DNA from: Burkholderiales bacterium
Lineage (GTDB): Bacteria > Pseudomonadota > Gammaproteobacteria > Burkholderiales > Ga0077523
Length of the DNA stretch: 64,000 nucleotides
Direction: 5' to 3'
Assembly (NCBI GenBank): GCA_019747905.1
Contig: JAIEQG010000013.1
Location: 50,482-114,481, forward strand
This document shows positions 16,838 through 37,299 of the stretch, piece after piece. Position numbers and translations under genes: made by a program. The stretch's first letter is position 1. Each line of letters starts with the position of its first letter. Below the pieces are notes generated by a model. It was not told the DNA's origin. It worked only from the letters and a program-made list of their open reading frames with translations, and made no database searches.

Positions 16838-17095
16838 ATGACCTGCACCCATCTCGACACCATTCAGGAAGTCACCCCGAGCGGCCGCGGCTGCAAGGAG
16901 TGCCTGGAGACGGGCGACACCTGGGTGCACCTGCGCCTGTGCCTCACCTGCGGCCACGTCGGATGCTGCGATTCGTCGAAGAACCGGCATGCGACGAAGC
17001 ACTTCCATGTGACGCAGCACCCGATCGTGCGGTCATTCGAACCCGGGGAAGACTGGGCTTGGTGCTTTGTCGACAGCGAATTCCTCGAAGTCTGA
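16838..17095 (+). CDS. UBP-type zinc-finger domain protein (stand-alone zf-UBP)
   Basis: 85 aa: CTHLDTI...GCKECLETGDTWVHLRLCLTCGHVGCCDSSKNRHATKHFHVTQHPIVRS. The Cys/His pattern matches zf-UBP. It starts 15 nt after the kinase stop. Confidence 0.85.
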   Translation: MTCTHLDTIQEVTPSGRGCKECLETGDTWVHLRLCLTCGHVGCCDSSKNRHATKHFHVTQHPIVRSFEPGEDWAWCFVDSEFLEV

Positions 17096-17168
17096 CCTCG
17101 AGCTTGCGGGCAGAGCCCGACGATCATATGCATTGCGCGGTAGGAACAACCTTGGTGTGGAGGCAAGG

Positions 17169-19199
17169 ATGACGAAGAAAAGCCCTGTCGGGACGAACAG
17201 ATGTTCGAACCTACTCAGGCGCGCGCTGGTTCACCATCTCGCCGCCGGATGCTCCTTCATGGCAGCGGCGTTCCCGGTGACAGCGATGGACGCAAGGGAC
17301 TTCGGTGCCGTTCGTTCACCTTTCCTCCCGCGGTTGGTCGCAGACGACGACCCTGAACTTTGTTCGATTGTATTGGCGTTGGCGCGGCGTACCTTTCTCT
17401 CCGGAGACTCTGACATGTGGGTCAATCGAGTCGATGGGAACGGTATTCGATGGGTCCCGTGGGAGGATCAGACGGCCTCTGAGGACTCGGCGCGCGGTCC
17501 CATACGTTCGATCGAACTTGATCTTGACGGCACCGGAACCAAACAGACTCTCGCCCTGCGCCACTACTTTCACACGTGGCGAGGTGAGAACTATTACGCC
17601 TTTGTCTTTCCGTCAAAGGGCAGTCTTGAATCGGTGATCAAGGATCCAAAGGCGGATTCCGACAATGGGGATACCGCAGAATCTCGATTGCCCGCCGATC
17701 CGGGGAGTCTGGATCCGGGTATTCGCTACTACCCGGATGGAGAGACGACGACTGGCGAAGCGGCAGAGGGAAGTGAATGGGAGGACCACCAACTCTTCGA
17801 GTTTCGGGGGCGCTACTACTTCTACGGATATCAGCATTGGCTGCACGGTCCACTGCAGAGGAGCCTTCCTGTCTATCGCCTGCAGGGGAACGGTCGATTG
17901 AAACCCGCTTGCAGGGTACAGATGTGGCCCATGGAGGACCGGGTCGCCGCCGCTGATTCCGTCGAGGGTGTTGCTGGTTACTTTGGAGTGCTTCGCCGCA
18001 TCGGTACTGGAGGTGTCGGCGACTGCGGAACGATGCATGCCAACGATATTCACGATTGGGGCGCCGAATTTGCGATGATGAATGCCATCATCCGCCCGTG
18101 GACCCTGTCCGAGCGGCGTCGCGAGGGCTCTGCGAAGTTGGAGCGAACGTTGATGGCGGATTGGAGTTTCGCTGGTGTCTGGAACCGCCGCGAGTATCAG
18201 ACCCTGCTGGAACATGAACCCTCGGCTTTGCAAGGCCTCGAGCGGCACTTCCAGAAGGCATTCGGGCTAAAGACAGACAACGCGCGGCGACAGGCGAAAC
18301 TCGCACTTGATCAGATAGTCGCAGCCTGGATCATGGTACCTGGCAGCTATGGAGACTTCCAAACGGTTGATCCGTTCCGGCAACGGATCATTCAAGGGAC
18401 CCTTACGAAAAGCGACATAGTCGAGTCGGGCAGTCCGAAGGAAGAAGGACGCGATGATCAATTGATTTTTCCCGTGTCGCCCTACCTCCACGACGCCGTG
18501 GAGTCCTCAAGTATTGCAAAGAGCTTGCTCGACGCCGGCTTCAGAGTTGATGCCAGGAACGACTTTGGCAAGACAGCCTTGATGATGGCTGCGCACATGA
18601 ATCGACCGGACGTGGTGGCACTGCTGCTTCGGCGCAAGGCCGCTGTTGATGCAAGGACCAAGGAGGTGAATCAGTGCGGCATGCAGATAAACCGAAGCGG
18701 TCGAACTGCGTTGATGTACGCAGCCGAGAATGCTGGCATCGAAGTGCTTCGATTGCTGGTCGAAGCGGGTGCGGACAGGAAGGCGGTGGACAGCCGCGGC
18801 GATGGCGTCGCTTACTATCTTGCCAAGAATCCCTACCTGACCGACGCGCAGAAACAGATGGATGTGGGCGCTCTCGTCAATAGCGTGCGACCGGTCCAGG
18901 GACCGAGCTTCAAATGCGGACCTGCATTGAGCGCCATAGATCGCCTGGTGTGCTCGGATGGCGTGCTTGCAATGCAAGATCGGTATCTCGCCGATGCCTA
19001 CGCCCGGTGGCTATCCCGCAAGGGCGAAGAAGCACGCAGGGACCAACGCACATGGCTCGCGCGCAGAAACAAGACCTGCGGCGCATTGACGAAGGACGAA
19101 AGTTTATCGTGCCTGCAGCAGTCCACACGTACGCGAATCCGCTACCTCCAGAATCGCTTGGCTGAGCAGGGAACAGACGCAGCCGGCGCGCGCCGCTGA
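17169..19199 (+). CDS. exported protein: unknown ~440-aa N-terminal domain + ankyrin repeats + DUF1311/LprI-like C-terminal domain
   Basis: ATG at 17169 with GGAGG upstream. The hydrophobic leader is HHLAAGCSFMAAAFPVTAMDA. Ankyrin repeats include GKTALMMAAHMNRPDVVALLLRRKAAVDA and GRTALMYAAENAGIEVLRLLVEAGADR. The C-terminus reads FKCGPALSAIDRLVCSDGVLAMQDRYLADAYARWL...QRTWLARRNKTCG...LSCLQQSTRTRIRYLQNRL. GC content is visibly lower than the flanks. Confidence 0.8.
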   Translation: MTKKSPVGTNRCSNLLRRALVHHLAAGCSFMAAAFPVTAMDARDFGAVRSPFLPRLVADDDPELCSIVLALARRTFLSGDSDMWVNRVDGNGIRWVPWEDQTASEDSARGPIRSIELDLDGTGTKQTLALRHYFHTWRGENYYAFVFPSKGSLESVIKDPKADSDNGDTAESRLPADPGSLDPGIRYYPDGETTTGEAAEGSEWEDHQLFEFRGRYYFYGYQHWLHGPLQRSLPVYRLQGNGRLKPACRVQMWPMEDRVAAADSVEGVAGYFGVLRRIGTGGVGDCGTMHANDIHDWGAEFAMMNAIIRPWTLSERRREGSAKLERTLMADWSFAGVWNRREYQTLLEHEPSALQGLERHFQKAFGLKTDNARRQAKLALDQIVAAWIMVPGSYGDFQTVDPFRQRIIQGTLTKSDIVESGSPKEEGRDDQLIFPVSPYLHDAVESSSIAKSLLDAGFRVDARNDFGKTALMMAAHMNRPDVVALLLRRKAAVDARTKEVNQCGMQINRSGRTALMYAAENAGIEVLRLLVEAGADRKAVDSRGDGVAYYLAKNPYLTDAQKQMDVGALVNSVRPVQGPSFKCGPALSAIDRLVCSDGVLAMQDRYLADAYARWLSRKGEEARRDQRTWLARRNKTCGALTKDESLSCLQQSTRTRIRYLQNRLAEQGTDAAGARR

Positions 19200-19277: not shown

Positions 19278-19544
19278 TCACCCCCTGCTGCGCTCCCGCC
19301 GATTCGTCAGGGTCGCCCGAACGGACTCCACCAATCCGGAAGTCAGTGGTGGAGTAGCGGCATGCGGTTCGGCCACCAGAAAGCGGCCTGTCTTGATCAG
19401 CTCTACGGGCAGGGGCTCCGCGCAGATCTCCACGATGCCGTCGGAAAGACGTATCGACAGAGGTGTCCCAGGGGTCAGCCCCGCCCCTTCCCTGATGTCC
19501 TTGGGGATCAAGACTCTTCCAGCCCTATCGATGGCAGTGTTCAT
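19278..19544 (-). CDS. AbrB/MazE/SpoVT-domain protein, VapB-like antitoxin (no adjacent toxin gene)
   Basis: 88 aa: MNTAIDRAGRVLIPKDIREGAGLTPGTPLSIRLSDGIVEICAEP...GRFLVAEPHAATPPLTSGLVESVRATL. The rest of track ORF 19278..20168 is a spurious extension. Confidence 0.7.
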   Translation of the reverse strand: MNTAIDRAGRVLIPKDIREGAGLTPGTPLSIRLSDGIVEICAEPLPVELIKTGRFLVAEPHAATPPLTSGLVESVRATLTNRRERSRG

Positions 19545-19726
19545 GGCGTTGATACTACCGTGGAGACTGCCATGATCGGGACGCTTCGTGCCAGCACGGA
19601 GCGCACCGCTCCCGAGCCTTGGTAGCGCCGCGCGGGTCATTGCCGAAGCAACAACCGCCACTCGGCATCGCACGCTGATGCGAAACCGAGCGGTGCGGCG
19701 ACATCGGAGCGGTACTCGGTGTCGAG

Positions 19727-20068
19727 CTATCGAACGCCAAGCAACTCCACCTCGAACACCAGCGTCGCATTCGGCGGTATCACCCCACCGGCCCCACGCG
19801 CGCCGTAGCCGAGTTCCGGCGGGATCGTGAGCTTGCGCTTGCCGCCCACCTTCATGCCCTGCACGCCCTCGTCCCAGCCGGCGATCACCTGCCGCTGGCC
19901 GAGTCCGAAGACGAACGGATCGTGGCGATCCTTGCTCGAGTCGAATTTCGAGCCGTCGGTCAGCCAGCCGGTGTAGTGCACGGTGACCTGGCGGCCGGCG
20001 GTGGCTTCGTCGCCGTCGCCGACGGTGAGTTCGTCGATGATGAGGCCGGTTGCGGTGGTGTTGGGCAT
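19727..20068 (-). CDS. FKBP-type peptidyl-prolyl cis-trans isomerase
   Basis: [89 protein letters not shown]. Confidence 0.9.
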
Positions 20069-20169
20069 GGCAGTCTCGCTGTCGTGAGGAAGTCGCGCAT
20101 TGTAGACGGGCGCGCGGTCCCGTATCGTCGCGGCGAACGCCAATAAGACGCGTGCACGGAGGCAACACG

Positions 20170-21029: not shown

Positions 21030-21497
21030 TTGATGGAACGTTCCGACGGCGTCTGCCGCCTGGTGCTCGACACGAACGTCTGGCTCGACTGGCTGGTATT
21101 CGCGGACGCTTCGGTTCAGGCGATTCGCACTGGGGTCCAGGCGCGGCGAATCGAGATAGTGATGAACCCGCCTTGTCGCGACGAACTCGAGCGCGCACTA
21201 GGCTACCCCTTTCGGGGGGAAGTGGCGCCCGCCGACGTCCAGGCGCTCTGGATGGTGGAAGCCCTCGGCATGGTCCGGCAGATCAAGTTGAACGGGGCCT
21301 CCGTGGTGGGTCGGCTGCCGCGATGTCACGACCCCGACGACCAGAAGTTTCTCGAGCTTGCCCTCGATGCCAGTGCGGACTTTCTGGTGACGCGCGACAA
21401 GGCGCTGCTCGTGTTCGCCCGCCGCCGCTTCCAGCCGCTGCCGTTTCGCGTCATGACGCCGCTGCAGTTCAGTGAGGTAAACGCACTGTCGGCTTGA
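21030..21497 (+). CDS. PIN-domain protein (stand-alone putative toxin/RNase type)
   Basis: RLVLDTNVWLDWLVF...DPDDQKFLELALDASADFLVTRDKALL gives the conserved acidic PIN residues. It starts 11 nt after the dioxygenase gene. No small antitoxin ORF lies adjacent. Confidence 0.75.
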   Translation: MMERSDGVCRLVLDTNVWLDWLVFADASVQAIRTGVQARRIEIVMNPPCRDELERALGYPFRGEVAPADVQALWMVEALGMVRQIKLNGASVVGRLPRCHDPDDQKFLELALDASADFLVTRDKALLVFARRRFQPLPFRVMTPLQFSEVNALSA

Positions 21498-21650
21498 AAC
21501 GCGCCGCGCTCGCACCAACCTTCGCCGGGAATGCTCGATTTCGGGCCACCCACCTACCTCGCTGCTTGGCAATGGAAGCCCGTGCGCCCCAGGTTCCCTG
21601 GGCGCGGGGCCCAATGCGGTAACGAGGGCAACACAAGAAAGGCGAATGCG

Positions 21651-24071
21651 ATGAATCAGTGGTTTACGCCTCAGTCTGTCCTCTCCGACGACGATGCGCG
21701 GTCGGCGCCTGGTGGCGAACCGCGCCGTCGCGGTGCGCCGCTTCGCCCCTTGCCGCCGGATGCGCTGATCCTCATCCCGGCGCGCAACGTCGTCCTGTAT
21801 CCCGGTGTCGTCTCGCCTGTGACCATCGGTCGCGCCACTTCGGTTGCCGCTGCACAAGCAGCTGTCCAATCGGAGCAACGCGTCGGTTTTCTGCTCCAGC
21901 GCGATGCCGAGCAGAATGATGTCCGTCCCAACGACCTGCACTGGGTCGGCACGGCAGGTCGCATCGTACGTTACGTGACAGGCCAGGACGGCTCGCATCA
22001 TCTCGTCGTGCAAGGCGAGGAACGCTTCCGTGTGCTCGAGTTCCTCGAGGGCTGGCCGTTCCTGGTGGGCCGCGTCGCACTCATCGCGCCGGCGGATGAA
22101 ACCGGACCCGAGATCGAAGCGCGCTTTCTCCAGTTGAAGGAAAAGGCAGTCGAGGCGATCCGTCTGCTGCCCAATGCGCCCGACGAGTTCATTCCGGTCG
22201 TGCAAGGCATGGAATCGGCCGGCGCGCTCGCGGACACAGTCGCGAACCTGATCGACGTCAAGCGCGAGGACAAGCAGGACATCCTCGAGACGTTCGATCT
22301 CACGCGCCGTCTCGATCGGGTGCTGGCATTGCTCGCCGCGCGTGTCGAGGTGCTGCGCCTTTCCAAGGAGATCGGCGACAAGACCAGGAAGGAATTCGAC
22401 GATCGCCAACGCGAGCATGTGCTGCGTGAACAGATGCGCCAGATCCAGAAGGAACTCGGCGATGGCGAAGATACGGCCGCGGAGATCGAAGGGCTGAAGA
22501 CGGCAGTCGAGTCTGCCGGGATGCCCGACGAAACGTTGAAGCACGCGCGCAAGGAACTGAAGCGCCTGGAACGCATGGGCGAGAGTTCGGGCGAGGCGTC
22601 GATGGTGCGCACGTATCTCGAGTGGCTGACCGAGTTGCCCTGGAAGGCCGACGACATCAAGTCGATCGACATCGCCGAGGCCCGCAGGGTGCTCGACGAG
22701 GATCACTTCGGTCTCGACAAGATCAAGCGGCGCATCCTCGAGTTCCTCGCAGTTCGCAAGCTCAATCCGGAAGGCAAGAGCCCGATCCTGTGCTTCGTCG
22801 GCCCGCCCGGCGTGGGCAAGACGTCGCTCGGCCAGTCGATCGCGAAGGCCACCGGCCGGACGTTCCAGCGCGTGGCGCTGGGCGGCGTGCACGACGAAGC
22901 GGAGATTCGTGGTCACCGGCGTACCTACATCGGTTCGCTGCCCGGCAACATCGTCCAGGCATTGAAGCGCGCCGGGTCACGCACGGGCGTGCTGCTGTTC
23001 GACGAGGTCGACAAGCTCGGCGCAGGCGGATTCCATGGCGATCCGTCGTCGGCGCTGCTCGAGGTGCTCGATCCGGAGCAGAACTCCAAGTTCCGCGATA
23101 ACTACCTCGGCGTCGACTTCGATCTGTCGAAGGTGATGTTCATCGCCACCGCGAACCAGCTCGACACCATTCCGGGGCCGTTGCGCGACCGCATGGAAAT
23201 CATCCAGCTTCCCGGTTACACGGAAGAGGAAAAGCTAGAGATCGCGCGCCGTTACCTCGTGAAGCGCCAGCTTGAAGCCAATGGCCTCTCCGCGGAGCAG
23301 GTGGCGGTCACCGATGCGGCGCTACGCAGGATCATCGGCGAGTACACGCGCGAAGCGGGTGTGCGCAATCTCGAACGCGAAGTCGGTTCGGTCCTGCGCC
23401 GGGTGGCGATGCGTATCGCGGAAGGCGAAGCCGGACCGATCACGGTGGACGGCAACGACCTGCACGCGATTCTTGGTGCGGCGCGGTTCGAGAACGAAGT
23501 GGCGCAGCGTGCCGGCTTGCCGGGCGTGGCGACGGGTCTTGCCTGGACGCCCGTGGGCGGTGACATCCTCTTCATCGAATCCGCGAAGGTGCAGGGCTCG
23601 GGCAAGTTGATCCTGACCGGGCAACTCGGTGATGTGATGAAGGAGTCAGCGCAAGCCGCACTCACGCTTGCCAAGACCTGGACCGGTCGCAAGCTCGACG
23701 ACGTCGATATCCACGTGCATGTGCCCGCGGGCGCGACACCGAAGGATGGTCCGAGTGCGGGTGTGGCGATGTTCCTGTCGCTCGTCTCGTTGCTCACCGA
23801 CAAGCCGGTGCGCGCTGACGTGGCGATGACCGGCGAGATCTCGCTGCGCGGGCTGGTCCTGCCCATCGGTGGCGTCAAGGAAAAGACCCTGGCCGCACTG
23901 CGCGCCGGTGTCACCACCGTGATGCTGCCGCGGCGCAACGCGAAGGATCTCGACGACGTGCCGGCCGAAGCGCGCGAGAAGCTGCAGTTCGTGCTGCTCG
24001 ATCGGGTCGAGGATGCGGTGCGTACGGCGATCGACGGGGTGCCGCCGGTGACGGAGCAGGCGGCGGCCTGA
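21651..24071 (+). CDS. lon: ATP-dependent Lon protease (endopeptidase La)
   Basis: Start at MNQWF (21651). Walker A reads FVGPPGVGKTSLGQSIA, followed by LFDEVDKL. The protease motif PKDGPSAGVAMFLSLVS is followed by MTGEISLRG. Confidence 0.95.
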   Translation: MNQWFTPQSVLSDDDARSAPGGEPRRRGAPLRPLPPDALILIPARNVVLYPGVVSPVTIGRATSVAAAQAAVQSEQRVGFLLQRDAEQNDVRPNDLHWVGTAGRIVRYVTGQDGSHHLVVQGEERFRVLEFLEGWPFLVGRVALIAPADETGPEIEARFLQLKEKAVEAIRLLPNAPDEFIPVVQGMESAGALADTVANLIDVKREDKQDILETFDLTRRLDRVLALLAARVEVLRLSKEIGDKTRKEFDDRQREHVLREQMRQIQKELGDGEDTAAEIEGLKTAVESAGMPDETLKHARKELKRLERMGESSGEASMVRTYLEWLTELPWKADDIKSIDIAEARRVLDEDHFGLDKIKRRILEFLAVRKLNPEGKSPILCFVGPPGVGKTSLGQSIAKATGRTFQRVALGGVHDEAEIRGHRRTYIGSLPGNIVQALKRAGSRTGVLLFDEVDKLGAGGFHGDPSSALLEVLDPEQNSKFRDNYLGVDFDLSKVMFIATANQLDTIPGPLRDRMEIIQLPGYTEEEKLEIARRYLVKRQLEANGLSAEQVAVTDAALRRIIGEYTREAGVRNLEREVGSVLRRVAMRIAEGEAGPITVDGNDLHAILGAARFENEVAQRAGLPGVATGLAWTPVGGDILFIESAKVQGSGKLILTGQLGDVMKESAQAALTLAKTWTGRKLDDVDIHVHVPAGATPKDGPSAGVAMFLSLVSLLTDKPVRADVAMTGEISLRGLVLPIGGVKEKTLAALRAGVTTVMLPRRNAKDLDDVPAEAREKLQFVLLDRVEDAVRTAIDGVPPVTEQAAA

Positions 24072-24265: not shown

Positions 24266-27200
24266 CTAGGCGCCGCTGCCACGCTCCGCCAGAAACTCCC
24301 CGAGCACCTTCGCCGTATGCGACCGCGTCGCCTTCGCGACGATCGTCTCAGGTGCTCCCTGCGCGACGATCTCGCCACCGGCATCCCCACCCTCGGGTCC
24401 GAGATCGATGATCCAGTCGGCCTCTGCCATCACATCGAGGTTGTGCTCGATCACCACCACGGAATTGCCGGCGTCCACCAGTCGATGCAGCACGCGGATC
24501 AGTTTCTCCACATCCGCCATGTGCAGCCCGACAGTCGGTTCGTCCAGCACGTAGAGCGTGTGCTGCTGCGCGCCGGCGCGACCCGGTCTGGCGCCGGCGT
24601 CGGACTGATCGGTGCGCACCTTGGACAGCTCCGTCACCAGCTTGATCCGCTGTGCTTCGCCGCCCGAGAGCGTCGGACTCTGCTGCCCGAGCGTGAGATA
24701 GCCCAGTCCCACGTCCTGCAGCAAGCGCAGCGCGTGATGGATCGAGTTGTGTGCCGAGAAGAACTCGACCGCGTCGTCCACGCTCATCGCCAGCACATCG
24801 CCGATGGACTTGCCCTTGAACTGCACCGAGAGTGTTTCGGGATTGAAACGTTTGCCGCCGCACACATCGCAGGTCACCTTCACGTCCGGCAGGAAGCTCA
24901 TCTCGATCTTCTGCAAACCCTGGCCTTCGCAGGCATCGCAGCGGCCGCTGCCGGTGTTGAAGGAAAACCGCGTGGCCTCGAAACCGCGCATGCGCGCTTC
25001 GGTGGTGCCGGCGAACAGTCGGCGGATCGAATCCCAGAAGCCGACGTAGGTCGCCGGGCAGGAGCGCGGTGTCTTGCCGATGGGCGTCTGGTCCACTTCG
25101 AGCACCCGACCCACCGCTTCCGCACCCTTGACGTCGCGACACCCGAGGAAGACTTCACCCGGCCCGCGGCGCTTGCGCCCTTCGGAGACGATGTGCACGA
25201 GATTCGCGTGCAGCACGTCGCGCGCGATCGTGGATTTGCCGGAGCCGGATACGCCTGTGATCACCGTCAGCCGACCGAGCGGCACGCGCGCGTTCACCTG
25301 CTTCAGGTTGTGCAGGTCCGCGCCCACGAGCTCGATCGAAGGCGCGGATGCGGCCACGGCACGCCGCGGCGCCAGCGGATGCCGCAATGGCTCGCGCAGG
25401 AAACGGCCGGTGAGCGAATCGGGCGAGGCCATCAGATCCTCTGCCGTGCCTTGCCCCACCACGTGACCGCCACGCGTGCCTGCGCCCGGACCCAGGTCGA
25501 GCACGTGGTCGGCGCGCCGGATGGTGTCTTCGTCATGCTCGACCACCACCAGCGTGTTGCCCTTCGCTTCCAGCCGGGCGAGTGTGTCCAGGAGAATGCG
25601 GTTGTCACGCGGGTGCAGGCCGATGGTGGGTTCGTCGAGGATGTAGCAAACACCTTGCAGGTTCGAACCCAGTTGCGAGGCGAGGCGGATGCGCTGGGCC
25701 TCGCCACCCGACAGCGTCGGAGCCGAACGATCCAGCGCGAGATAGCCGAGCCCCACGTCCTGCAGGAAGCCGAGCCGTGACTTGAGCTCCGCCAGGATGT
25801 CGCGGGCGATCTCGAGTTCGCGCCCTTCGAGCGCGAGCAGATGGAAGAAGTCGTCGATCTTGCCCACCGACAGTGCCGCGAGGTCGGCGATGGAGAGGTC
25901 GCGAAACAGCACGTTCAGTGCGATCGGATTGAGGCGCTTGCCCTCGCAGGTCGGGCACGGGTGCGCATCGCCTTCGAACCAGTCGTTCCACCAGATCTCT
26001 TCGCCGGTCTGTTCCTCGTCGAACCCCTGGATCGCGAGGCCGGTGCCGTAACACGTCTCGCACCAGCCGTGCTTCGAGTTGTAGGAGAAGAGGCGTGGGT
26101 CGAGTTCCGGATAGCTGGTACCGCAGGTCGGGCAGGCGCGCTTGGTGGAGAACACCTGGTCGGTCGCCTCGGCCTTGCCCTCCAGCAGACCATCGAGCGG
26201 CGCGATGACGTGCACCACGCCCTTGCCGTGTTCCAGCGCGGTCGCCAGCGCGGTGCGCAGCGCGGTCTCGGCTTCCGGCGTGATCACAAGATCCGCCACC
26301 GGCAGCTCCAGAGTGTGCTCCTTGAACCGGTCGAGGCGCGGCCATTTCGCCGTGCCGATGAACTCGCCGTCCACACGCAGGTGCGTGTAGCCCTTGCCGG
26401 ACGCCCACTTCGCGAGATCGGTGTAGTACCCCTTCCGCGCGACCACCAGAGGCGCCAGAAGACCGATGTGCTGGCCTCGATAGTCGCGCAGGATGCGCGC
26501 GACGATGCTGTCGACGCTTTGCGGTTCGATCGGTGTGCCGTCGTTCGGGCAATGCTGCGTGCCCAGCTTCATGAACAGCAGCCGCAGGAAGTGATACACC
26601 TCGGTGAGAGTGGCCACCGTGCTCTTGCGCCCGCCGCGGCTGGTGCGCTGCTCGATCGCGACCGTGGGCGGAATGCCGAAGATCGCGTCCACGTCGGGGC
26701 GTGAGGCCGGCTGCACGAACTGGCGCGCATAGGCGTTGAGTGACTCGAGGTAACGGCGCTGGCCTTCGTTGAACAGGATGTCGAAGGCGAGCGTGGACTT
26801 GCCGGAGCCGGACACGCCGGTGATCACGTTGAAGCCGTGGCGCGGAATGTCGACGTTGACGCTCTTCAAGTTGTGTTCGCGGGCGTTGCGCACGCTGATC
26901 GAAGTTCCTCCCCGGGCCGCGCGCGGTACCGGTCGGTAGCTCACCGCGGACTCGGCGACGCGCGGCGTGTTGCCCGACAGCGCCGTGGCGTAGTCCCGCA
27001 GGGCCTTGCCGGTATGCGATGTCGGATGGGCCATCACGTCGGTCGGGGTGCCTGCGCAGACGAGCGCACCGCCGGCATCGCCGCCTTCGGGTCCCAGGTC
27101 GATCAGCCAGTCCGACGCACCGATCACGTCGAGGTTGTGCTCGATCACGATCAGAGAATGACCGGCGGCGAGCAGCTTGCGGAAGGCCCGGAGCAGCTTC

Positions 27201-30031
27201 GCGGTGTCGTCGAAATGCAGTCCGGTCGTCGGCTCGTCGAACAGGAACAACGATTTCGACGCCGTGCCGAGGTTGGCTTCGGCGAGATGACCGGCCAGCT
27301 TGAGCCGCTGTGCTTCGCCGCCCGACAAGGTCGGCACCGGCTGACCCAGGCGCAGGTACTCGAGGCCCACGTCTGCGAGCGGCTGCAGGCGCGCTAGCGT
27401 CTCCTTCGAATCGGCAAAGAAATGCACGGCCTCCGACACCGTCAATTCGAGTACCTCCGCCATGTTCCTGCCGGCCACAGTGATCTCGAGCACTTCCGGG
27501 CGATAGCGCTTGCCGTCGCAGTCCGGGCAGCGCAGATACACGTCGGAGAGGAACTGCATCTCCACGTGCTCGAAGCCGTTGCCGCCGCAGGTCGGGCAGC
27601 GGCCGTCGCCGGAGTTGAAGCTGAAGGTGCCGGGGGTATAGGCGCGCTGCTTCGCAGCCGGCGTGTCCGCGAACAGCTTGCGGATCGCGTCGAAGGCCCC
27701 GACGTAGCTCGCGGGGTTGGACCGGGTGGTCTTGCCGATCGGTGTCTGGTCCACCATCACGACCTCGGCGACGTGCTGATGGCCGCGCAGCTCACGGAAC
27801 GCGCCTGGCGTTTCGGTCGGCTTGCCTTTCTGCTTGAGCAGCGCGGCGTAGAGCACGTCCTGGACGAGGGTCGACTTGCCCGAGCCGGAAACGCCGGTGA
27901 TGGTGACCAGCCGCTCCAGCGGAATCGTCACATCCACGTTCTTCAGGTTGTGCTCGGTCGCACCGAGCAACTCCAGTTTCGGTCCGCGCGCATCGGGCGC
28001 TCGCGGCGCGAGACCGCTGTCGGCACGCTTGCGCCCCGACAGATACGAGGCGGTGAGCGAATCCGGTGTGCGCATCATCTCCTCCGGCGTGCCGAAGAAG
28101 ACGATCTCGCCGCCGCGTTCGCCGGGTCCGGGGCCCATGTCGAGCAGCCGGTCGGCGGCGAACATGATCTGCGGATCGTGCTCCACCACCACCAGCGAGT
28201 TGCCGGCATCGCGCAGCTTCTGCATCACCGCGATCACGCGCAGCATGTCGCGCGGATGCAGGCCGATGGAAGGTTCGTCGAGCACGAAGAGGGTGTTGAC
28301 GAGCGACGTGCCGAGCGCGGTGGTGAGGTTGATGCGCTGCACTTCGCCGCCCGAGAGCGTGCGCGATTGGCGGTCGAGTGTGAGATAGCCGAGCCCCACT
28401 TCGTTGACGAAACCGAGGCGGCTTCGGATCTCCGCGAGCAGCAGGTCGGTGGCTTCGTCGAGAGCGCCTTCGAGGCGCAGGCTCTCGAAGAACGTGCGGG
28501 TGCGTTCCGTGGGCAACAGCATCAGGTCGTGGATCGACAGACCCGGCAGGTGCTCGAGGACCTCGCGCGACCAGTCAACGCCCCGAGGCAGAAAGCGCTG
28601 GTTCGACGGGAGCACGGCATCGGCATCTGCGCTCGTACCGACTCGCCACAGCAGGGATTCCGGCTTCAGGCGCGCGCCGCCGCACGACTCGCACGGGGTG
28701 TAGGCGCGGTACTTCGACAGCAGCACCCGGATGTGCATCTTGTACGCCTTGGTCTCGAGCCAGGCGAAGAAGCGCCGCACGCCGTACCACGTGCCCGGCC
28801 AGGACTTGCTCCAGCTCTTCCATTCCGGTTCGCCCTCCAGCACCCAATGGCGCTGGGCATCGGTGAGGTCGCGCCAGGGCACATCGAGCGGGACGTCGCG
28901 CTTTCTTGCGTACTTCACCAGATCGTCCTGGCATTCGCTGAAACTCGGCGTCTGCCAAGGTTTGATCGCGCCGCCGCCGAGCGTCTTCGCAGAGTCCGGC
29001 ACGATCAGCCCGAAATCGATGCCGATCACGCGGCCGAAACCGCGACAGGTCTCGCAGGCCCCGATGGGCGAATTGAACGAGAAGCGGCTCGGATTCGGCT
29101 CGCTGTAGTGGATGTCGCAGTCGGGGCAGTGCAGGTCGGTGCTGTAACGCCACACTGCGGACGCCACGGGCACTCCTTTCCCCACCGGAACGGTGGGGGA
29201 AGGTTGGGAGCGAGACGGGGAATTCGAGCCGCATGCGGCGAGCCCGTCGAGCGGCGCCGGCATGCAGGCCGGCGCGCACTCCGCAGGAGGGGGCATTCCA
29301 CCGCCCGCAGCATCGTCGCCCACCGGATACACATTCACCCGCCCTTGCCCCACCCGCAGCGCCGCTTCGAGCGCCTCCACGATCCGCGCCCGTTCCGCGT
29401 TGCCCGCCCGGAACCGATCCTGGATGACCTCGACCGCATCCTTCGATCGCGCGTGGATCCGCGAATACCCCTGCACCTCCAGCAACTTCAGGACTTCCTC
29501 TTCCTTGAAATTCTTCGGCACCGGGACCGGGAAGGTCACGATCAGCCGTGGATCGCCCGTCGTCCTGGCCCGTTCCGTAAGGTCGTCGAAGATGGTCTGC
29601 GGCGAGTCGCGGCGCACCGCGCGCCCGCAATGGCGGCAGTGCAGATGGGCTGCCCGCGCGAACAGCAGCTTCAGGTGGTCGTTCAGCTCCGTCATCGTGC
29701 CGACGGTGGAGCGCGAGGTGCGCACCGGGTTGGTCTGGTCGATGGCAATGGCGGGCGGTATGCCCTCGACCCGATCCACCTGCGGCTTGTCCATGCGGTC
29801 CAGGAACTGGCGCGCGTAGGGCGAGAACGTCTCCACGTAGCGCCGCTGGCCTTCGGCGTAAAGCGTGTCGAACACCAGGGAGGACTTGCCGGAGCCGGAC
29901 ACGCCGGTCACCACCACCAGTTCGTTGGTGGGGATCGAGAGGGTCAGGTTCTTGAGGTTGTTCTGGCGCGCGCCGTGAATGACGATTGCTTCGCCGACAC
30001 GGTCGGAAAGAGGGGAATCGGGGGTTTTCAT
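24266..30031 (-). CDS. uvrA: tandem-duplicated UvrA-family ABC ATPase (two UvrA modules in one 1921-aa polypeptide)
   Basis: Start at MKTPDSPL (ATG 30031). There are four Walker A sites: GVSGSGKSSLVFDTLYAEGQRRY, GVSGSGKSTLVQDVLY, GVSGSGKSTLAFDILFNEGQRRY and GVSGSGKSTIARDVLH. There are four LSGGEAQR signature motifs. Zn-module CxxC pairs occur in both halves. Confidence 0.9.
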   Translation of the reverse strand: MKTPDSPLSDRVGEAIVIHGARQNNLKNLTLSIPTNELVVVTGVSGSGKSSLVFDTLYAEGQRRYVETFSPYARQFLDRMDKPQVDRVEGIPPAIAIDQTNPVRTSRSTVGTMTELNDHLKLLFARAAHLHCRHCGRAVRRDSPQTIFDDLTERARTTGDPRLIVTFPVPVPKNFKEEEVLKLLEVQGYSRIHARSKDAVEVIQDRFRAGNAERARIVEALEAALRVGQGRVNVYPVGDDAAGGGMPPPAECAPACMPAPLDGLAACGSNSPSRSQPSPTVPVGKGVPVASAVWRYSTDLHCPDCDIHYSEPNPSRFSFNSPIGACETCRGFGRVIGIDFGLIVPDSAKTLGGGAIKPWQTPSFSECQDDLVKYARKRDVPLDVPWRDLTDAQRHWVLEGEPEWKSWSKSWPGTWYGVRRFFAWLETKAYKMHIRVLLSKYRAYTPCESCGGARLKPESLLWRVGTSADADAVLPSNQRFLPRGVDWSREVLEHLPGLSIHDLMLLPTERTRTFFESLRLEGALDEATDLLLAEIRSRLGFVNEVGLGYLTLDRQSRTLSGGEVQRINLTTALGTSLVNTLFVLDEPSIGLHPRDMLRVIAVMQKLRDAGNSLVVVEHDPQIMFAADRLLDMGPGPGERGGEIVFFGTPEEMMRTPDSLTASYLSGRKRADSGLAPRAPDARGPKLELLGATEHNLKNVDVTIPLERLVTITGVSGSGKSTLVQDVLYAALLKQKGKPTETPGAFRELRGHQHVAEVVMVDQTPIGKTTRSNPASYVGAFDAIRKLFADTPAAKQRAYTPGTFSFNSGDGRCPTCGGNGFEHVEMQFLSDVYLRCPDCDGKRYRPEVLEITVAGRNMAEVLELTVSEAVHFFADSKETLARLQPLADVGLEYLRLGQPVPTLSGGEAQRLKLAGHLAEANLGTASKSLFLFDEPTTGLHFDDTAKLLRAFRKLLAAGHSLIVIEHNLDVIGASDWLIDLGPEGGDAGGALVCAGTPTDVMAHPTSHTGKALRDYATALSGNTPRVAESAVSYRPVPRAARGGTSISVRNAREHNLKSVNVDIPRHGFNVITGVSGSGKSTLAFDILFNEGQRRYLESLNAYARQFVQPASRPDVDAIFGIPPTVAIEQRTSRGGRKSTVATLTEVYHFLRLLFMKLGTQHCPNDGTPIEPQSVDSIVARILRDYRGQHIGLLAPLVVARKGYYTDLAKWASGKGYTHLRVDGEFIGTAKWPRLDRFKEHTLELPVADLVITPEAETALRTALATALEHGKGVVHVIAPLDGLLEGKAEATDQVFSTKRACPTCGTSYPELDPRLFSYNSKHGWCETCYGTGLAIQGFDEEQTGEEIWWNDWFEGDAHPCPTCEGKRLNPIALNVLFRDLSIADLAALSVGKIDDFFHLLALEGRELEIARDILAELKSRLGFLQDVGLGYLALDRSAPTLSGGEAQRIRLASQLGSNLQGVCYILDEPTIGLHPRDNRILLDTLARLEAKGNTLVVVEHDEDTIRRADHVLDLGPGAGTRGGHVVGQGTAEDLMASPDSLTGRFLREPLRHPLAPRRAVAASAPSIELVGADLHNLKQVNARVPLGRLTVITGVSGSGKSTIARDVLHANLVHIVSEGRKRRGPGEVFLGCRDVKGAEAVGRVLEVDQTPIGKTPRSCPATYVGFWDSIRRLFAGTTEARMRGFEATRFSFNTGSGRCDACEGQGLQKIEMSFLPDVKVTCDVCGGKRFNPETLSVQFKGKSIGDVLAMSVDDAVEFFSAHNSIHHALRLLQDVGLGYLTLGQQSPTLSGGEAQRIKLVTELSKVRTDQSDAGARPGRAGAQQHTLYVLDEPTVGLHMADVEKLIRVLHRLVDAGNSVVVIEHNLDVMAEADWIIDLGPEGGDAGGEIVAQGAPETIVAKATRSHTAKVLGEFLAERGSGA
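29175..29210 (-). repeat. family-1 hairpin unit embedded in-frame inside the uvrA-like CDS
   Basis: The plus strand reads CCTTTCCCCACCG-gaa-CGGTGGGGGAAGG-TTGGGAG. On the coding strand this is CTCCCAACCTTCCCCC..., the same left end as the intergenic copies. It translates as SQPSPTVPVGKG. Confidence 0.6.
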
Positions 30032-30369
30032 GTCAGTGGGGTGTTCGTTATCGCGATGGGCCAGCGGCCGGCGCAGCCGGGTTGCACGGGCCCTCCCGTA
30101 CAAGGCCTTGAGATGGGTGTCGCAGGGCCGCCCCAAGACACTGATGCGCCCCCTCGGGGGGCAGCGATCGCAGTGAGCGTGGGGGCCGTTTTGTCAGACT
30201 TTGGAGGGGTCGCGAGGGTCGACCCGGAAGCCCTCGATTGTAGTCTTGCCGCAGTGCAAACAAACGATCGCGTGCCGCGCGGGGAGTCTTTCCCTTGACC
30301 TCCCGGGTCGACAGTCGCACCATGTTCAGCCAACAAAAACTTACAGCAGCATTGGGGAGGAAAGAGCGC

Positions 30370-30516
30370 ATGGGACCGATCGGCCGGGCTTGCTCGGCGT
30401 TTTCGCTCGTGGTGACTGCCGGTATCGCACCGGCCTCGGGGGCGGCCGAAGGTTGGCCTTCAGGAACAGCGCTCTCGCATGGGCAGATCGCACGGAAGAT
30501 CGAGGCCCGCGCATGA
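30370..30516 (+). CDS. possible small leader ORF (48 aa) coupled to the cytochrome c gene
   Basis: ATG at 30370, preceded by GGGGAGGAAAG. Its stop overlaps the cytochrome c start (ATGA at 30513-30516). The hydrophobic N-terminus reads MGPIGRACSAFSLVVTAGIAPASGAA. No family was recognised. Confidence 0.35.
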   Translation: MGPIGRACSAFSLVVTAGIAPASGAAEGWPSGTALSHGQIARKIEARA

Positions 30517-30872
30517 AATTCTCGATCGCGATCATTGCGATGCTGTCGCTCGTCCTGTCGATGGCGGCCACGGCTGAAACCAGTCCCCAGGAAGCCAAGC
30601 AGATCTACGATCAGATGTGTGCCGGCTGCCACGGTTTCCAGGGCGACGGCGGCGAAGGGCACCGCGGCGGATTCAGCCCGCACATCGGCACGCTGGCCAA
30701 CAAGGCCTACATGGCCTCGGTGCCCGACGAGTACCTCGCCATGATCATCAAGAAGGGCGGCGCCGCCATGGGCAAGATTGCCACCATGCCGGCCTGGGAG
30801 CACAAGTTCAACGAGGAGCAGGTGAATGCCCTCGTAAAGCACATTCGATCATTTGCGCCCGCCGATCATTAG
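30513..30872 (+). CDS. c-type cytochrome (mono-haem, CxxCH)
   Basis: The signal peptide is MKFSIAIIAMLSLVLSMAATAE. The haem site is IYDQMCAGCHGFQGDG, with a distal Met region ATMPAW. Confidence 0.85.
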   Translation: MKFSIAIIAMLSLVLSMAATAETSPQEAKQIYDQMCAGCHGFQGDGGEGHRGGFSPHIGTLANKAYMASVPDEYLAMIIKKGGAAMGKIATMPAWEHKFNEEQVNALVKHIRSFAPADH

Positions 30873-31058: not shown

Positions 31059-32723
31059 ATGAGAATACCAATCTACGCAGCAGTGCTCGCATTGGCTGTG
31101 GGGGCCACGGCGGGATCTGCTTTCGCGGCGGATGACCGCGCGAAGGCGGAGCCGGGTGGTCCGGCCGGGAAGTGGTCCACGCGCACGCCGGTTACGCCGG
31201 ATCCGAGCAAGATCAAGATCGCGAAGGGCTACAAGGTGCAGGTGTTCGCCGCCGGCCTCGACACGATCACGTCCATCGCGGTCGACAAGGACGACAACGT
31301 CTGGGTTGCCATTTCCGGCAACACCTTCGGCTTTCCACCCGAGGGCATCGACAAGCCGCACGTGAAGATCTTCGACAAGAACGGCAAGCTCATCAAGGAC
31401 AAGGTCGGCCTGGGGACGTTCAAGTCGTTCGCCCTGAACGAGATCGGCTATTGCCCGGAGAACGGTCGCATGTACGTCGGCGACTACAGCTACGGCATCT
31501 GGGAAGTCGACGGCGTGAACGGCACGCCCAAGCTGATCATGAACGAGGTCCCGATCGGCGACCACGCGCTCGGCGGCATCACCTGCCGCGACGGCTGGCT
31601 CTACTACGCCGTGGGCGCACCTTCCAACTCCGGTTTTTCCGATCCCAACATCCACGGCTGGACCGATGCGATCGACCCGTACTGGGAAAAGCGCACCACG
31701 GACGGCATGCCGGCGCTGCCGCGTGACCCGCCCTGCCGCGACATCGTGCTGACGGGCCTGAACATCCGCGACACCGAAGGCAACCTCACGGGCGCTTACC
31801 TGCCCAAGGGCACGCCGTCGAAGCCCGGGCAGGTCATCAAGGCACAGAAGCCCTGCGGCGGCGCCATCCATCGCGCCAAGTTGAAGGCCGACAGCAGCTA
31901 CACGCGGGATGACTGGGAAGTCTACGCGATGGGCCTGCGCAATTCGTCGGGTGTCGCGTTCGGACCGAAGGGTTCGCGCTTCGAGAAGGCCCTGGCGGTG
32001 AGCGACAACGGTCACAACGACAAGGGCAACCGCCGCGTGGCCAATGCTGCAGAGCGTCTGTTCGTCTTCACCGAGAAGGGCCAGGACGCGGGCTTCCCGG
32101 ACAAGGACGGCGACAACTTCGTCAACATCAAGCGCTCCGGCCCGGATACCTACCGTGGCAACAAGTTCGACCCGACCCGGCCCAATCCCCAGCTCTACAT
32201 CGGGGACAAGCCCTTCGTGCCTAGCCTGCCGCCCTATCGTTTCATCGATCACTCGATCGGTGTGCGCGGTACGCCGCTGATCGTGGCCAACCCCAACCCG
32301 AACGGCTACATCAACCCGGTGCTGGAGTGGGACACGAACAACCCCATGGACGGTCTGGCATGGTCGAACCCCGGATTCGAAGGCAGGCCGGGTGACGTGC
32401 TCTACACCGCGGTGTTCGGCATCATCGACAACGGCCCGGAAAGCCTGCGTCCGATGTGGCCGGCCGTGGTCCGTGTCGAGTTCCTCAACCCGACCGGCGT
32501 GAAGTGGTCCATCTTCGCGGAGAACATCGATCCGGGCCCCAACGCCTATCAGAAGAAGGAAAACCGGGGTGGGTTCGAGCGCACCAACGACGTCGAGTTC
32601 AGCATGGACGGCAAGACCATGTACGTCGCCGACTACGGCGAGCTGTACGTGAACTACCAGATGGAATCGCCGTTCTACACCACGCCGAAGTCGGCGGTCG
32701 TGTGGAAGATCACCAAGGAGTGA
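31059..32723 (+). CDS. exported beta-propeller protein, glucose/sorbosone-dehydrogenase-like (possibly PQQ-dependent)
   Basis: The signal peptide is MRIPIYAAVLALAVGATAGSAFA. The stretch DHALGGITCRDGWLYYAVGAPSNSG resembles the GSDH-family motif. The family assignment rests on motif recall only. Confidence 0.7.
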   Translation: MRIPIYAAVLALAVGATAGSAFAADDRAKAEPGGPAGKWSTRTPVTPDPSKIKIAKGYKVQVFAAGLDTITSIAVDKDDNVWVAISGNTFGFPPEGIDKPHVKIFDKNGKLIKDKVGLGTFKSFALNEIGYCPENGRMYVGDYSYGIWEVDGVNGTPKLIMNEVPIGDHALGGITCRDGWLYYAVGAPSNSGFSDPNIHGWTDAIDPYWEKRTTDGMPALPRDPPCRDIVLTGLNIRDTEGNLTGAYLPKGTPSKPGQVIKAQKPCGGAIHRAKLKADSSYTRDDWEVYAMGLRNSSGVAFGPKGSRFEKALAVSDNGHNDKGNRRVANAAERLFVFTEKGQDAGFPDKDGDNFVNIKRSGPDTYRGNKFDPTRPNPQLYIGDKPFVPSLPPYRFIDHSIGVRGTPLIVANPNPNGYINPVLEWDTNNPMDGLAWSNPGFEGRPGDVLYTAVFGIIDNGPESLRPMWPAVVRVEFLNPTGVKWSIFAENIDPGPNAYQKKENRGGFERTNDVEFSMDGKTMYVADYGELYVNYQMESPFYTTPKSAVVWKITKE

Positions 32724-35335: not shown

Positions 35336-37144
35336 TCAGGCCGAACCCAGCAACGCCAGCAGCTCGTCGCCGTAGCGCTCCAGCTTCTTCGTCCCGACGC
35401 CACCGATATCGCCGAGCGCGTTGAGATCGCGTGGCCGCACTCTCGCGATCTCGGCGAGCGTCTTGTCGTGGAAGATCACGTACGGCGGCACCGACTGGGA
35501 CCGCGCGAGATCCAGTCGCCATGCGCGCAGGCGGTCCATCAGCGCCATGTCCGCGGGCGGGAGACTGCTCGGCGCGACGCGCCGGCTCCGGCGTGTCCCC
35601 GTCGTTGCGCGCACGCGGCGCAGTTCCACGCGCTGTTCGCCCTTGAGAACGGAGCGGCTCGCCTCGGTCAGTTTGAGCGCGCCGTGGGCCTCGTGATCGA
35701 CGTGGACCAGGTCGAGTGCTGCGAGCTGCCGGAACACGCTGCGCCAGACGGGCTCGTCCACATCGGCGCCGACGCCGAATACGCCGAGCTGATCGTGGCC
35801 CCAGCGGGCAATCCGCTCGCCGGGTTTGCCGCGCAGCACGTCGATGAGGTGCACGGCGCCGAAGCGTTGGCCCGTGCGATAGATGGCGGACAGGGCCTTG
35901 CGGGCGGCGTCCGTCGCATCCCAGGTCTCCGGGGGTTCCAGGCACGTGTCGCAGTTGCCGCACGGTTCGGACGACTCGCCGAAATAGGACAGCAGACGGA
36001 CGCGCCGGCATCCCGCGGTTTCGCACAATCCGAGCAGCGCGTCGAGCTTTGCCGTGGCGACGCGCTTGAACTCGGCATTGGCTTCGGACAGATCGATGAG
36101 GCGGCGCTGTTGCACCAGGTCGGCCAGGCCGTAGGTCATCCAGGTATCGGCCGGCAAGCCGTCGCGGCCGGCACGACCGGTTTCCTGGTAGTAGCCTTCG
36201 ATGCTCTTAGGCAGATCGAGATGGGCGACGAAACGCACGTCGGGCTTGTCGATGCCCATGCCGAACGCAATGGTGGCGACCATCACGATGCCTTCGTCGC
36301 GTTGGAAACGGGCCTGGTGTTCCGCACGCGTGGCGGCATCCATCCCCGCGTGGTAGGGCAAGGCATCGACACCTTGAGCGACCAGCCACGCCGCCGTTTC
36401 GTCCACCTTGCGGCGCGACAGGCAATACACGATGCCCGATTCGCCGGCGTGTTCTTCGCGGATGAAGCGCAACAACTGCGACCGCGGATCGGTCTTGTCG
36501 ACGATGGTGTAGCGGATATTGGGCCGATCGAAGCTCGAGACGAACACGTGCGCGTCGCCGAGCGCCAGGCGGTCCATGATCTCGGTGCGCGTCTGCGGGT
36601 CTGCCGTGGCGGTGAGGGCGATGCGCGGAACATTCGGGAAGCGCTCGTGCAGCACCGAAAGCTGCAGGTACTCGGGACGGAAGTCGTGACCCCACTGCGA
36701 TACGCAGTGGGCCTCGTCGATCGCGAACAGTGCGAGCGGTGTGCGCGCCAGCAGATCGAGGGTGCGCGGCATCGCCAGGCGCTCGGGCGCGAAGTAGACG
36801 AGATCGAGTTCACCCGCTGCCAATGCCTGCTCGACGGCGCGAGCCTCGGCTGCATCGAGAGTCGAATTGAGGAATGCCGCGCGCACGCCGGCTTGCCGGA
36901 GGGCCGCCACCTGATCCTGCATGAGCGCGATCAGCGGCGAGATCACGACCCCCACGCCGGGCCGCAACAGCGACGGAATCTGGTAGCAAAGCGACTTGCC
37001 GCCGCCCGTGGGCATCAACACCAGTGCGTCGCCGCCTTCGACGACCGCTTGCACGACTTCGGCCTGGAGACCGCGAAACGCCGGATAGCCGAATACGTCG
37101 CGCAGGATTCCGCTGGCTCGGTCGAGGGTCGTCGGGTCAGGCAT
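35336..37144 (-). CDS. recQ: ATP-dependent DNA helicase RecQ
   Basis: Start at MPDPTTLD (ATG 37144). Sequence VFGYPAFRGLQAEVVQAVVEGGDALVLMPTGGGKSLCYQIPSL...FAIDEAHCVSQWGHDFRPEY...ATIAFGMGIDKPDVRFV. The C-terminal HRDC domain reads LRAWRLDLARSQSVPPYVIFHDKTLAEIA. Confidence 0.95.
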   Translation of the reverse strand: MPDPTTLDRASGILRDVFGYPAFRGLQAEVVQAVVEGGDALVLMPTGGGKSLCYQIPSLLRPGVGVVISPLIALMQDQVAALRQAGVRAAFLNSTLDAAEARAVEQALAAGELDLVYFAPERLAMPRTLDLLARTPLALFAIDEAHCVSQWGHDFRPEYLQLSVLHERFPNVPRIALTATADPQTRTEIMDRLALGDAHVFVSSFDRPNIRYTIVDKTDPRSQLLRFIREEHAGESGIVYCLSRRKVDETAAWLVAQGVDALPYHAGMDAATRAEHQARFQRDEGIVMVATIAFGMGIDKPDVRFVAHLDLPKSIEGYYQETGRAGRDGLPADTWMTYGLADLVQQRRLIDLSEANAEFKRVATAKLDALLGLCETAGCRRVRLLSYFGESSEPCGNCDTCLEPPETWDATDAARKALSAIYRTGQRFGAVHLIDVLRGKPGERIARWGHDQLGVFGVGADVDEPVWRSVFRQLAALDLVHVDHEAHGALKLTEASRSVLKGEQRVELRRVRATTGTRRSRRVAPSSLPPADMALMDRLRAWRLDLARSQSVPPYVIFHDKTLAEIARVRPRDLNALGDIGGVGTKKLERYGDELLALLGSA

Positions 37145-37299
37145 GGTGGCGGGAGTATGACCGCTCGCCGCCGGCGCCCGCAATGCGTCGAATAGGGGCT
37201 GCACTCCGGGCCGACGGTGCGGGAAAGGTTGTATAGTCGCCGCCCCGGAGCCCGCACATCCTGGACCAGGCAGGCCCTGAATCGACCCGCGCCATCGCC

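Follow-up and report, generated by a model that had tools for sequence, protein, structure and literature searches.

The stretch analysed here (the window, 64,000 nucleotides of the Burkholderiales bacterium assembly GCA_019747905.1, contig JAIEQG010000013.1, positions 50,482–114,481) carries a gene for a double-length form of the excision-repair protein UvrA. The gene lies on the minus strand; no strand was given in the first-pass annotation of the window. One unbroken open reading frame (ORF) occupies positions 24266–30136, where TTG is the first possible start and the ORF listing gives 1956 aa. An ATG at position 30031 yields a product of 1921 aa with the N-terminus MKTPDSPL and a frame free of internal stops. 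This ATG form is the sensible start, since homologues align from residues 1–16. The first-pass annotation described the 1921-aa ORF as two UvrA modules in one chain, and the description holds: the frame is unbroken and both halves pass the TIGR00630 model. The gene is thereby confirmed as a genuine in-frame tandem of two complete UvrA modules.

Assignment of the protein to the UvrA family is near certain. The curated equivalog models have cut-offs of 730 bits (TIGR00630), 1147 bits (NF001503) and 3054 bits (NF001885). When the halves are scored separately with TIGR00630, the N-terminal half (N-half) reaches 910 bits and the C-terminal half (C-half) 1031 bits; since each half alone exceeds the cut-off, chance is not an issue. 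With NF001503 the whole protein (2034 bits) is above the cut-off, whereas the halves alone (910 and 1065 bits) are below it. NF001885/PRK00635 is a curated double-length 'excinuclease ABC subunit A' of 1809 positions, about twice the normal UvrA length, and presumably represents the chlamydial type. Membership of the window protein in it was rejected (1142 bits against the cut-off of 3054). Among solved structures, the class I UvrAs of Clostridium thermocellum, Mycobacterium, Thermotoga and Bacillus are the closest in sequence.

The features of the gene are given below; residue conservation was scored across 73 members of the tandem-UvrA family. All lie on the minus strand. Structural models are those of AlphaFold2 (AF2), with the predicted local distance difference test (pLDDT) and predicted template modelling (pTM) scores, and HMM stands for hidden Markov model.

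24266–30031, minus strand: complete tandem UvrA coding sequence (1921 aa plus stop); unbroken ORF, 2034 bits with NF001503, 1984 bits with TIGR00630, collinear relatives.
26987–30031, minus strand: module 1, the N-half (residues 1–1015), a complete UvrA unit; 910 bits with TIGR00630, AF2 pLDDT 78.7 and pTM 0.71, best folds 2r6f and 3uwx.
29882–29905, minus strand: Walker A site 1, GVSGSGKS (residues 43–50); K49 corresponds to E. coli K37, K in 73/73.
29117–29638, minus strand: N-half UvrB-binding-like domain (residues 132–305); PF17760 at 29.5 bits (HMM 58–106), hairpin of about 20 aa missing, R216 and E222 kept.
29162–29311, minus strand: Pro/Ala/Gly/Ser-rich insert (residues 241–290); conservation 0.04, gapped in 68–71 of 73 members, pLDDT 25–33.
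28682–29056, minus strand: N-half insertion domain inside zinc (Zn) module 2 (residues 326–450); PF17755 at 44.6 bits, 111–117 aa in 73/73.
27872–27895, minus strand: Walker A site 2 (residues 713–720); K719 corresponds to E. coli K646, K in 73/73.
27518–27598, minus strand: N-half C-terminal zinc finger Zn3 (residues 812–838); four cysteines in 73/73.
26909–26986, minus strand: inter-module linker (residues 1016–1041); lowest family conservation block (0.34), variable spacing, low pLDDT.
24269–26908, minus strand: module 2, the C-half (residues 1042–1921), a UvrA unit without insertion domain; 1031 bits with TIGR00630, AF2 pLDDT 79.1 and pTM 0.71.
26795–26818, minus strand: Walker A site 3 (residues 1072–1079); K1078 is K in 73/73.
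26123–26551, minus strand: C-half UvrB-binding-like domain (residues 1161–1303); PF17760 at 98.5 bits (HMM 1–106), pLDDT 85–93.
25946–26062, minus strand: C-half remnant replacing the insertion domain (residues 1324–1362); 31 residues, no PF17755 match, pLDDT about 51–58.
25232–25255, minus strand: Walker A site 4 (residues 1593–1600); K1599 is K in 73/73.
24860–24940, minus strand: C-half C-terminal zinc finger Zn3 (residues 1698–1724); four cysteines in 73/73.

Each half shares with canonical class I UvrA (E. coli; B. stearothermophilus 2R6F and 3UWX) two ATP-binding cassette (ABC) domains, zinc modules 2 and 3, a UvrB-binding-like domain and DNA-binding arginines, and equivalents of G502, K37 and K646 are present in each. 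Canonical class I UvrA is a homodimer, whereas in the window protein the two modules form one chain. The linker joining them, TALSGNTPRVAESAVSYRPVPRAARG, has the sequence quoted in the first-pass annotation and lies where it was placed, with about 26 aa (nt 26909–26986). The distance from the H-loop to the Walker A motif across it ranges from 96 to 146 residues among relatives, and the C-half model begins with 21 residues of low confidence (pLDDT about 33). From sequence and model alike, the linker is variable and probably flexible.

Four exact GVSGSGKS Walker A motifs start at residues 43, 713, 1072 and 1593, in agreement with the initial count. Four signature motifs are also present, although they are not four copies of LSGGEAQR, as initially reported: the sequence is exact at 902, 1440 and 1788, and the first motif reads LSGGEVQR (559), its valine being invariant in the family. 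The Walker A, signature, Walker B, Q-loop and H-loop elements of all four sites are conserved at about 100% in the 73 sequences, and neither half varies at the lysines equivalent to E. coli K37 and K646. Judged from these motifs, the four ATPase sites look competent. Distant tandem families differ from the window family in that their Walker A or signature motifs are often degenerate.

The cysteines of Zn2 and Zn3 are invariant in both halves across the relatives. All three zinc modules are present in the N-half of the window protein, and its Zn1 cysteines are kept in only 42 of the 73 relatives. The C-half has complete Zn2 and Zn3 modules, and its Zn1 is represented by C1161, C1300 and C1303, with Asp at the position of the E. 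coli His.

The gene is neither rare nor new; it is a member of an old, widespread and already annotated family. The best 120 protein-database matches, most of them in Burkholderiales or Rhodocyclaceae, are 1816–2022 aa long, share 69–96% identity at 85–100% query coverage (mostly 97–100%) and carry the name 'excinuclease ABC subunit UvrA'. A scan with one genome per species gives relatives in at least 597 species, and the best 80 loci are collinear over residues ~1–1920. These 80 include Bordetella, Achromobacter, Cupriavidus necator, Rubrivivax, Variovorax, Acidovorax, Pandoraea and Mycetohabitans, as well as Steroidobacteraceae, Saccharospirillum and a few metagenome-assembled genomes of Nitrospirota, Verrucomicrobiia and Chitinispirillaceae. 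Single ORFs longer than 1750 aa are given by 72 independent loci. The first-pass annotation considered that a frameshift or stop might split the gene; for the family, such an artefact or junction frameshift is excluded by a continuous ORF at independent loci in hundreds of assemblies, complete genomes included.

The window protein belongs to the betaproteobacterial-type tandem UvrA ('uvrA2') family, since both modules are collinear with those of its members and the halves are orthologous to the matching halves. Genes labelled uvrA2, uvrA_2 or uvrA in Burkholderiales (Ralstonia megaplasmid, Cupriavidus) are tandem like the window protein, which adds its own disordered 50-aa insert. In Ralstonia the tandem gene is carried on the megaplasmid in 134 records, annotated as uvrA or uvrA_2; Cupriavidus, Burkholderia, Caballeronia and Mycetohabitans carry it on chromids. 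The chromid genes of Ralstonia and Cupriavidus have the same layout of 1.9 thousand aa, are collinear over residues ~3–1920 and show ~62% identity to the window protein. The C. metallidurans chromid NZ_CP046333.1, from a zinc-factory pond, carries the tandem gene; it is absent from the one 50-kb stretch examined of C. metallidurans CH34 NC_007974.2. The annotation of CH34 gives uvrA plus uvrA2 (Rmet_4549, second replicon), the tandem form being assumed from the label, as it is for B. pertussis BP3240, which is uvrA2 by annotation. Bordetella hinzii is annotated with uvrA_1 and uvrA_2. Genomes annotated with uvrA2 or uvrA_2 list a separate uvrA too, and these labels imply that such genomes hold another uvrA beside the tandem gene.

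The tandem uvrA is retained in Candidatus Burkholderia leaf-nodule symbionts (loci L046 and L068) and on Mycetohabitans megaplasmids (H126–H129). The genomes of these symbionts are presumably reduced or eroding, and the retention hints that the tandem gene is not dispensable there.

For the age of the fusion, 69 diverse tandem UvrAs were split into halves and aligned with E. coli UvrA on 605 core columns. Over these columns the N-half of the window protein is 52% identical to its own C-half; aligned separately with E. coli UvrA, as the first-pass annotation had proposed, the N-half shares 52% and the C-half 56% identity. The nearest neighbour of an N-half is the N-half of another protein in 69 of 69 cases, and that of a C-half is another C-half in 61 of 69. 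In a neighbour-joining tree (a rough one, without bootstrap and with E. coli UvrA as the only canonical reference), the N-half of the window protein falls in a clade of 37 N-halves only and its C-half in one of 37 C-halves only; both clades comprise the same 37 proteins and leave E. coli UvrA outside. The choice between ancient fusion and recent duplication, for which a phylogeny of the halves had been suggested, falls on the former: as far as the sequences can tell, the parallel clades point to one ancient fusion, older than the diversification of the family and followed by co-divergence of the halves. Recent tandem duplication is ruled out by the 52% identity between the halves together with these clades.

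In 13 tandem proteins, which form a group of their own, the N-halves cluster with E. coli UvrA, and 16 of the 69 representatives are tandem class II proteins, both halves of which are without a UvrB-binding domain. Tandem UvrAs are thus diverse and probably arose more than once.

Among the best 150 representatives (50% identity clusters, P0121–P0270), nearly all are 1550–2340 aa long. They include double class II and canonical-like-N forms, and many are without at least one Walker A or signature motif. These motif losses suggest that asymmetric ATP sites may have evolved repeatedly.

The two halves of the window family are systematically different. The first difference concerns the insertion region, which measures 125 aa in E. 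coli UvrA. In the N-half, 117 residues separate the CETC motif from CESC (111–117 aa in 73/73 relatives), whereas the C-half has only 31 between C1327 and C1359 (29–45 aa in 73/73). PF17755 matches the N-half (44.6 bits) and gives no match in the C-half. The first-pass annotation had already assigned an insertion-domain-like segment to module 1 and only a short one to module 2; the peptide that it quoted is exact. Loss of the insertion domain from the C-half is secondary, since 9 of the 37 superfamily representatives keep it in both halves.

The second difference concerns the UvrB-binding-like domain. PF17760 (UvrA_inter) gives 136 bits in E. coli UvrA, 98.5 bits over HMM positions 1–106 in the C-half and 29.5 bits over positions 58–106 in the N-half, where a hairpin of about 20 aa is missing. 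The initial report of a UvrB-binding-like segment in both modules stands insofar as each has a PF17760 match, but the two are not equivalent: the N-half domain is short and keeps R216 and E222, and the C-half domain is full-length with variable residues at these positions. In E. coli UvrA, R216 and E222 make up the surface through which it interacts with UvrB and Mfd (Manelyte et al. 2010, PMC3025350, citing Pakotiprapha 2009). E. coli R216 aligns with R216 of the N-half (R in 73/73) and E222 with E222 (64 E, 9 D). The corresponding C-half positions are A1257 (A/E/Q/L) and A1263 (A/S/K/R). The restriction of R216/E222 and of a 'DR' motif to N-halves holds for every N/C pair sampled from the 37-member superfamily (10 shown), whereas in the canonical-like tandem group most N- and C-halves alike keep R216/E222 and the 'DR' residues. 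A reading based on Pfam scores, with a working UvrB-binding domain in the C-half and a decayed one in the N-half, was revised after R216/E222 had been mapped.

The third difference runs in the opposite direction. The DNA-binding arginines of E. coli UvrA are R712, R722, R724 and R730 (PMC3025350). All four positions are retained in the C-half (R1680 being R or K in relatives), and two of the four are invariant in the N-half. Relative to class I UvrA, the C-half is without the insertion domain and R216/E222, and the UvrB-binding domain of the N-half is without the hairpin.

AF2 models were obtained by half (N-half pLDDT 78.7, C-half 79.1, pTM 0.71 each). The UvrB-binding-like domains are predicted to be folded in both halves, with a pLDDT of ~85–93 (about 90 for N-half residues 132–240). 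The insert 241–290, the linker and the C-half insertion-domain remnant are unstructured in the models. The best fold matches of the N-half model are B. stearothermophilus UvrA 2r6f and 3uwx (UvrA and the UvrA–UvrB complex), at E 1e-78.

The insert (residues 241–290), which lies inside the N-half UvrB-binding-like domain, contains three cysteines, is lineage-specific and is predicted to be disordered. The ENA protein P0001, 96% identical to the window protein, is 13 aa shorter, and the insert may vary among close relatives.

Taken together, the features of the tandem protein are best read as those of an accessory damage sensor in which a single chain would act as a pseudo-dimer and offer one docking site for UvrB, an overall picture that the sequences make somewhat more probable than the remaining readings taken together. 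That one chain mimics the canonical UvrA dimer is plausible. The two modules would pack as an intramolecular pseudo-dimer, the counterpart of the canonical UvrA2 homodimer, which would scan DNA with ATP in the usual way. Fusion could have released the halves from symmetry and allowed their specialisation. The N-half would then supply the sole insertion domain and the sole conserved R216/E222 surface for UvrB or Mfd, and the C-half the complete DNA-binding arginine patch. Docking of one UvrB (or Mfd) per damage-sensing unit is proposed because the R216/E222 surface is conserved in the N-half only, and the lesion would be passed on to the ordinary UvrB–UvrC machinery. The one-UvrB mechanism itself has about an even chance of being correct. 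The role of the protein would be that of an accessory damage sensor with no recognisable LexA box.

E. coli UvrA without the insertion domain (residues 290–400 deleted) works on short substrates and in transcription-coupled repair (Manelyte et al., PMC3025350) and loses damage specificity in global repair (PMC3025350). Since the deletion costs E. coli UvrA its damage specificity, a pseudo-dimer with a single insertion domain could have altered specificity. A bolder possibility is that the obligately asymmetric single-chain sensor constitutes a separate excision-repair sub-pathway of Burkholderiales and their relatives, recruiting one UvrB or Mfd via the N-half while the C-half fold is re-purposed for another partner; this extension is doubtful, though worth stating.

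Several observations weigh against a single docking site in the N-half. Its UvrB-binding-like domain may not bind UvrB either, because the hairpin of about 20 aa is missing, the Zn1 ligands are gone in 31 of the 73 relatives and only half of the Pfam model is matched. The C-half domain matches that model better overall, and R1259, two residues past the R216 position, is nearly invariant there; the C-half could bind UvrB in a shifted register. The roughness of the neighbour-joining tree counts against the overall picture.

The tandem uvrA stands alone, without conserved partner genes. A Lon protease gene (21531–24071, plus strand) lies downstream and converges on it, and a cytochrome c gene (30201–30872) lies upstream and diverges from it. 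A PIN-family gene, a thiamine-diphosphate decarboxylase gene and recQ (35336–37519, minus strand, ~5 kb upstream) are situated farther off. No neighbour is conserved across 81 related loci, where the most recurrent flanking family is present in 15, and the linkage of Lon and recQ to the tandem gene is not conserved in related loci. E. coli uvrA adjoins ssb; the window gene does not. No LexA-type box (CTGT-N8-ACAG) occurs in the upstream region 30032–30260 even with one mismatch allowed, as the first-pass annotation had noted for SOS/LexA-type boxes, and no sigma-70 consensus was found upstream of the gene.

Instead of sensing damage for UvrB, the protein could act as a UvrB-independent DNA-guarding ATPase like the class IIa proteins DrrC and Ecm16, removing or tolerating intercalating drugs and other non-covalent DNA binders independently of the other excision proteins. 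UvrA paralogues found beside canonical UvrA do include drug-resistance proteins such as Ecm16 (PMC9328131), clear homology extends to the class II structures 2vf7 and 7sh1, the UvrB-contact residues of the C-half are lost, and the tandem gene is often on chromids, which hold accessory functions. Like the uvrA2 genes of the window type, class II genes (D. radiodurans UvrA2, 2VF7; Ecm16, 7SH1; DrrC) represent a paralogue beside a canonical gene, with a role that is obscure or lies outside classical excision repair. However, class II is defined by the absence of the UvrB-binding domain (PMC9328131) and its members are single dimerising modules, whereas both window halves keep a copy that is predicted to be folded. 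Class II membership was rejected on the PF17760 match and confidently predicted fold of this domain in both halves; the tandem class II forms (16 of the 69 representatives) are a different group from the window family. The invariance of R216/E222 in the N-half also argues against a UvrB-independent guard, no biosynthetic or efflux cluster is linked to the gene, and no neighbour is conserved. Such a role is unlikely.

The protein could also be a redundant back-up UvrA, that is, a covalent symmetric dimer in which both UvrB-binding domains work and two UvrB are loaded. Retention of all four ATP sites, of the Zn3 finger in each half and of two UvrB-binding-like folds would agree with this, as would the presence of both insertion domains in 9 of the 37 superfamily representatives. 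However, the halves differ systematically, and their differences are conserved superfamily-wide: the C-half loses R216/E222, the 'DR' motif and mostly the insertion domain, and the N-half loses part of the arginine patch. These complementary losses are systematic and therefore point to division of labour, not redundancy, and a symmetric back-up is improbable.

A part in phage defence, as a component of the MADS system, is suggested by PADLOC, which reports mad3 (511 bits over 6 stretches) and mad8 (221 bits). The matches cover generic UvrA-like ABC domains, UvrA equivalog models score four times higher, and the neighbours, which lay outside the PADLOC scan, are Lon, PIN-family, cytochrome c, thiamine-diphosphate decarboxylase and RecQ genes, with no flanking family in more than 15 of the 81 loci; this assignment is very improbable. 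Apart from the window gene, the strength with which mad3 and mad8 match UvrA-like ABC domains suggests that two or more components of MADS are UvrA-like ATPases. An error of sequencing or assembly that fused two adjacent uvrA genes, or a tandem duplication of recent date, has nothing in its favour beyond the unusual length and is practically negligible, given the same continuous ORF in hundreds of independent assemblies and halves that are 52% identical and phylogenetically tracking.

ABCE1/RLI and ABC-F proteins, single-chain ABC proteins whose nucleotide-binding domains are not equivalent, are distant matches and offer an analogy only to the accessory single-chain sensor proposed above: covalent linkage of ABC units lets sites and appended domains diverge. 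They have two nucleotide-binding domains compared with four here, and their accessory domains and biology are unrelated.

A duplicated UvrA class is reportedly listed by Goosen and Moolenaar in DNA Repair in 2008. No paper describing a 'class III' UvrA was found in the searchable literature. The function of duplicated UvrA paralogues was called uncharacterised in the first-pass annotation; in keeping with this, no functional study and no account of the tandem architecture, asymmetry or function was found in the searchable open literature, and genome papers mention uvrA2 genes only in passing.

By itself, the window locus is ordinary for its clade and adds one more copy of a gene that hundreds of species carry under the annotation uvrA. 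The family, on the other hand, has received little study and is of mechanistic appeal as a variant of a classic repair protein: a conserved and apparently functional single-chain form of a normally symmetric homodimer, the halves of which have shed complementary features. If the one-UvrB model is true, the family would provide a natural system for studying the number of UvrB molecules per damage sensor. The protomers and the four ATP sites could then be mutated independently, which is impossible one protomer at a time in symmetric homodimers, and the results would bear on UvrA:UvrB stoichiometry and on the division of labour between proximal and distal sites. Under the plain label 'uvrA', a paralogue of only predicted function is hidden in pathogens of plants and humans, among them Ralstonia, Burkholderia and Bordetella.

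Other features of the window do not concern the tandem gene. No Rfam RNA element matches within the window. The PIN-family gene (21030–21497, plus strand), just upstream of the Lon gene, is toxin-like, and near it an ORF at 19278–20168 (minus strand) has a weak match to a MazE-antitoxin domain, exactly at the Pfam cut-off; the two might form a toxin–antitoxin pair. A 710-aa ORF (17067–19199, plus strand) combines ankyrin repeats with a C-terminal LprI (lysozyme-inhibitor) domain. The stretch holding it has a G+C content of 0.61–0.62 compared with ~0.66 elsewhere. Horizontal acquisition of this stretch is possible, given that free-living bacteria seldom encode ankyrin proteins. Finally, a 554-aa ORF (31059–32723, plus strand) with a signal-peptide-like N-terminus matches nothing in NCBIfam or Pfam; its very high third-position G+C (0.88) makes a real gene probable.

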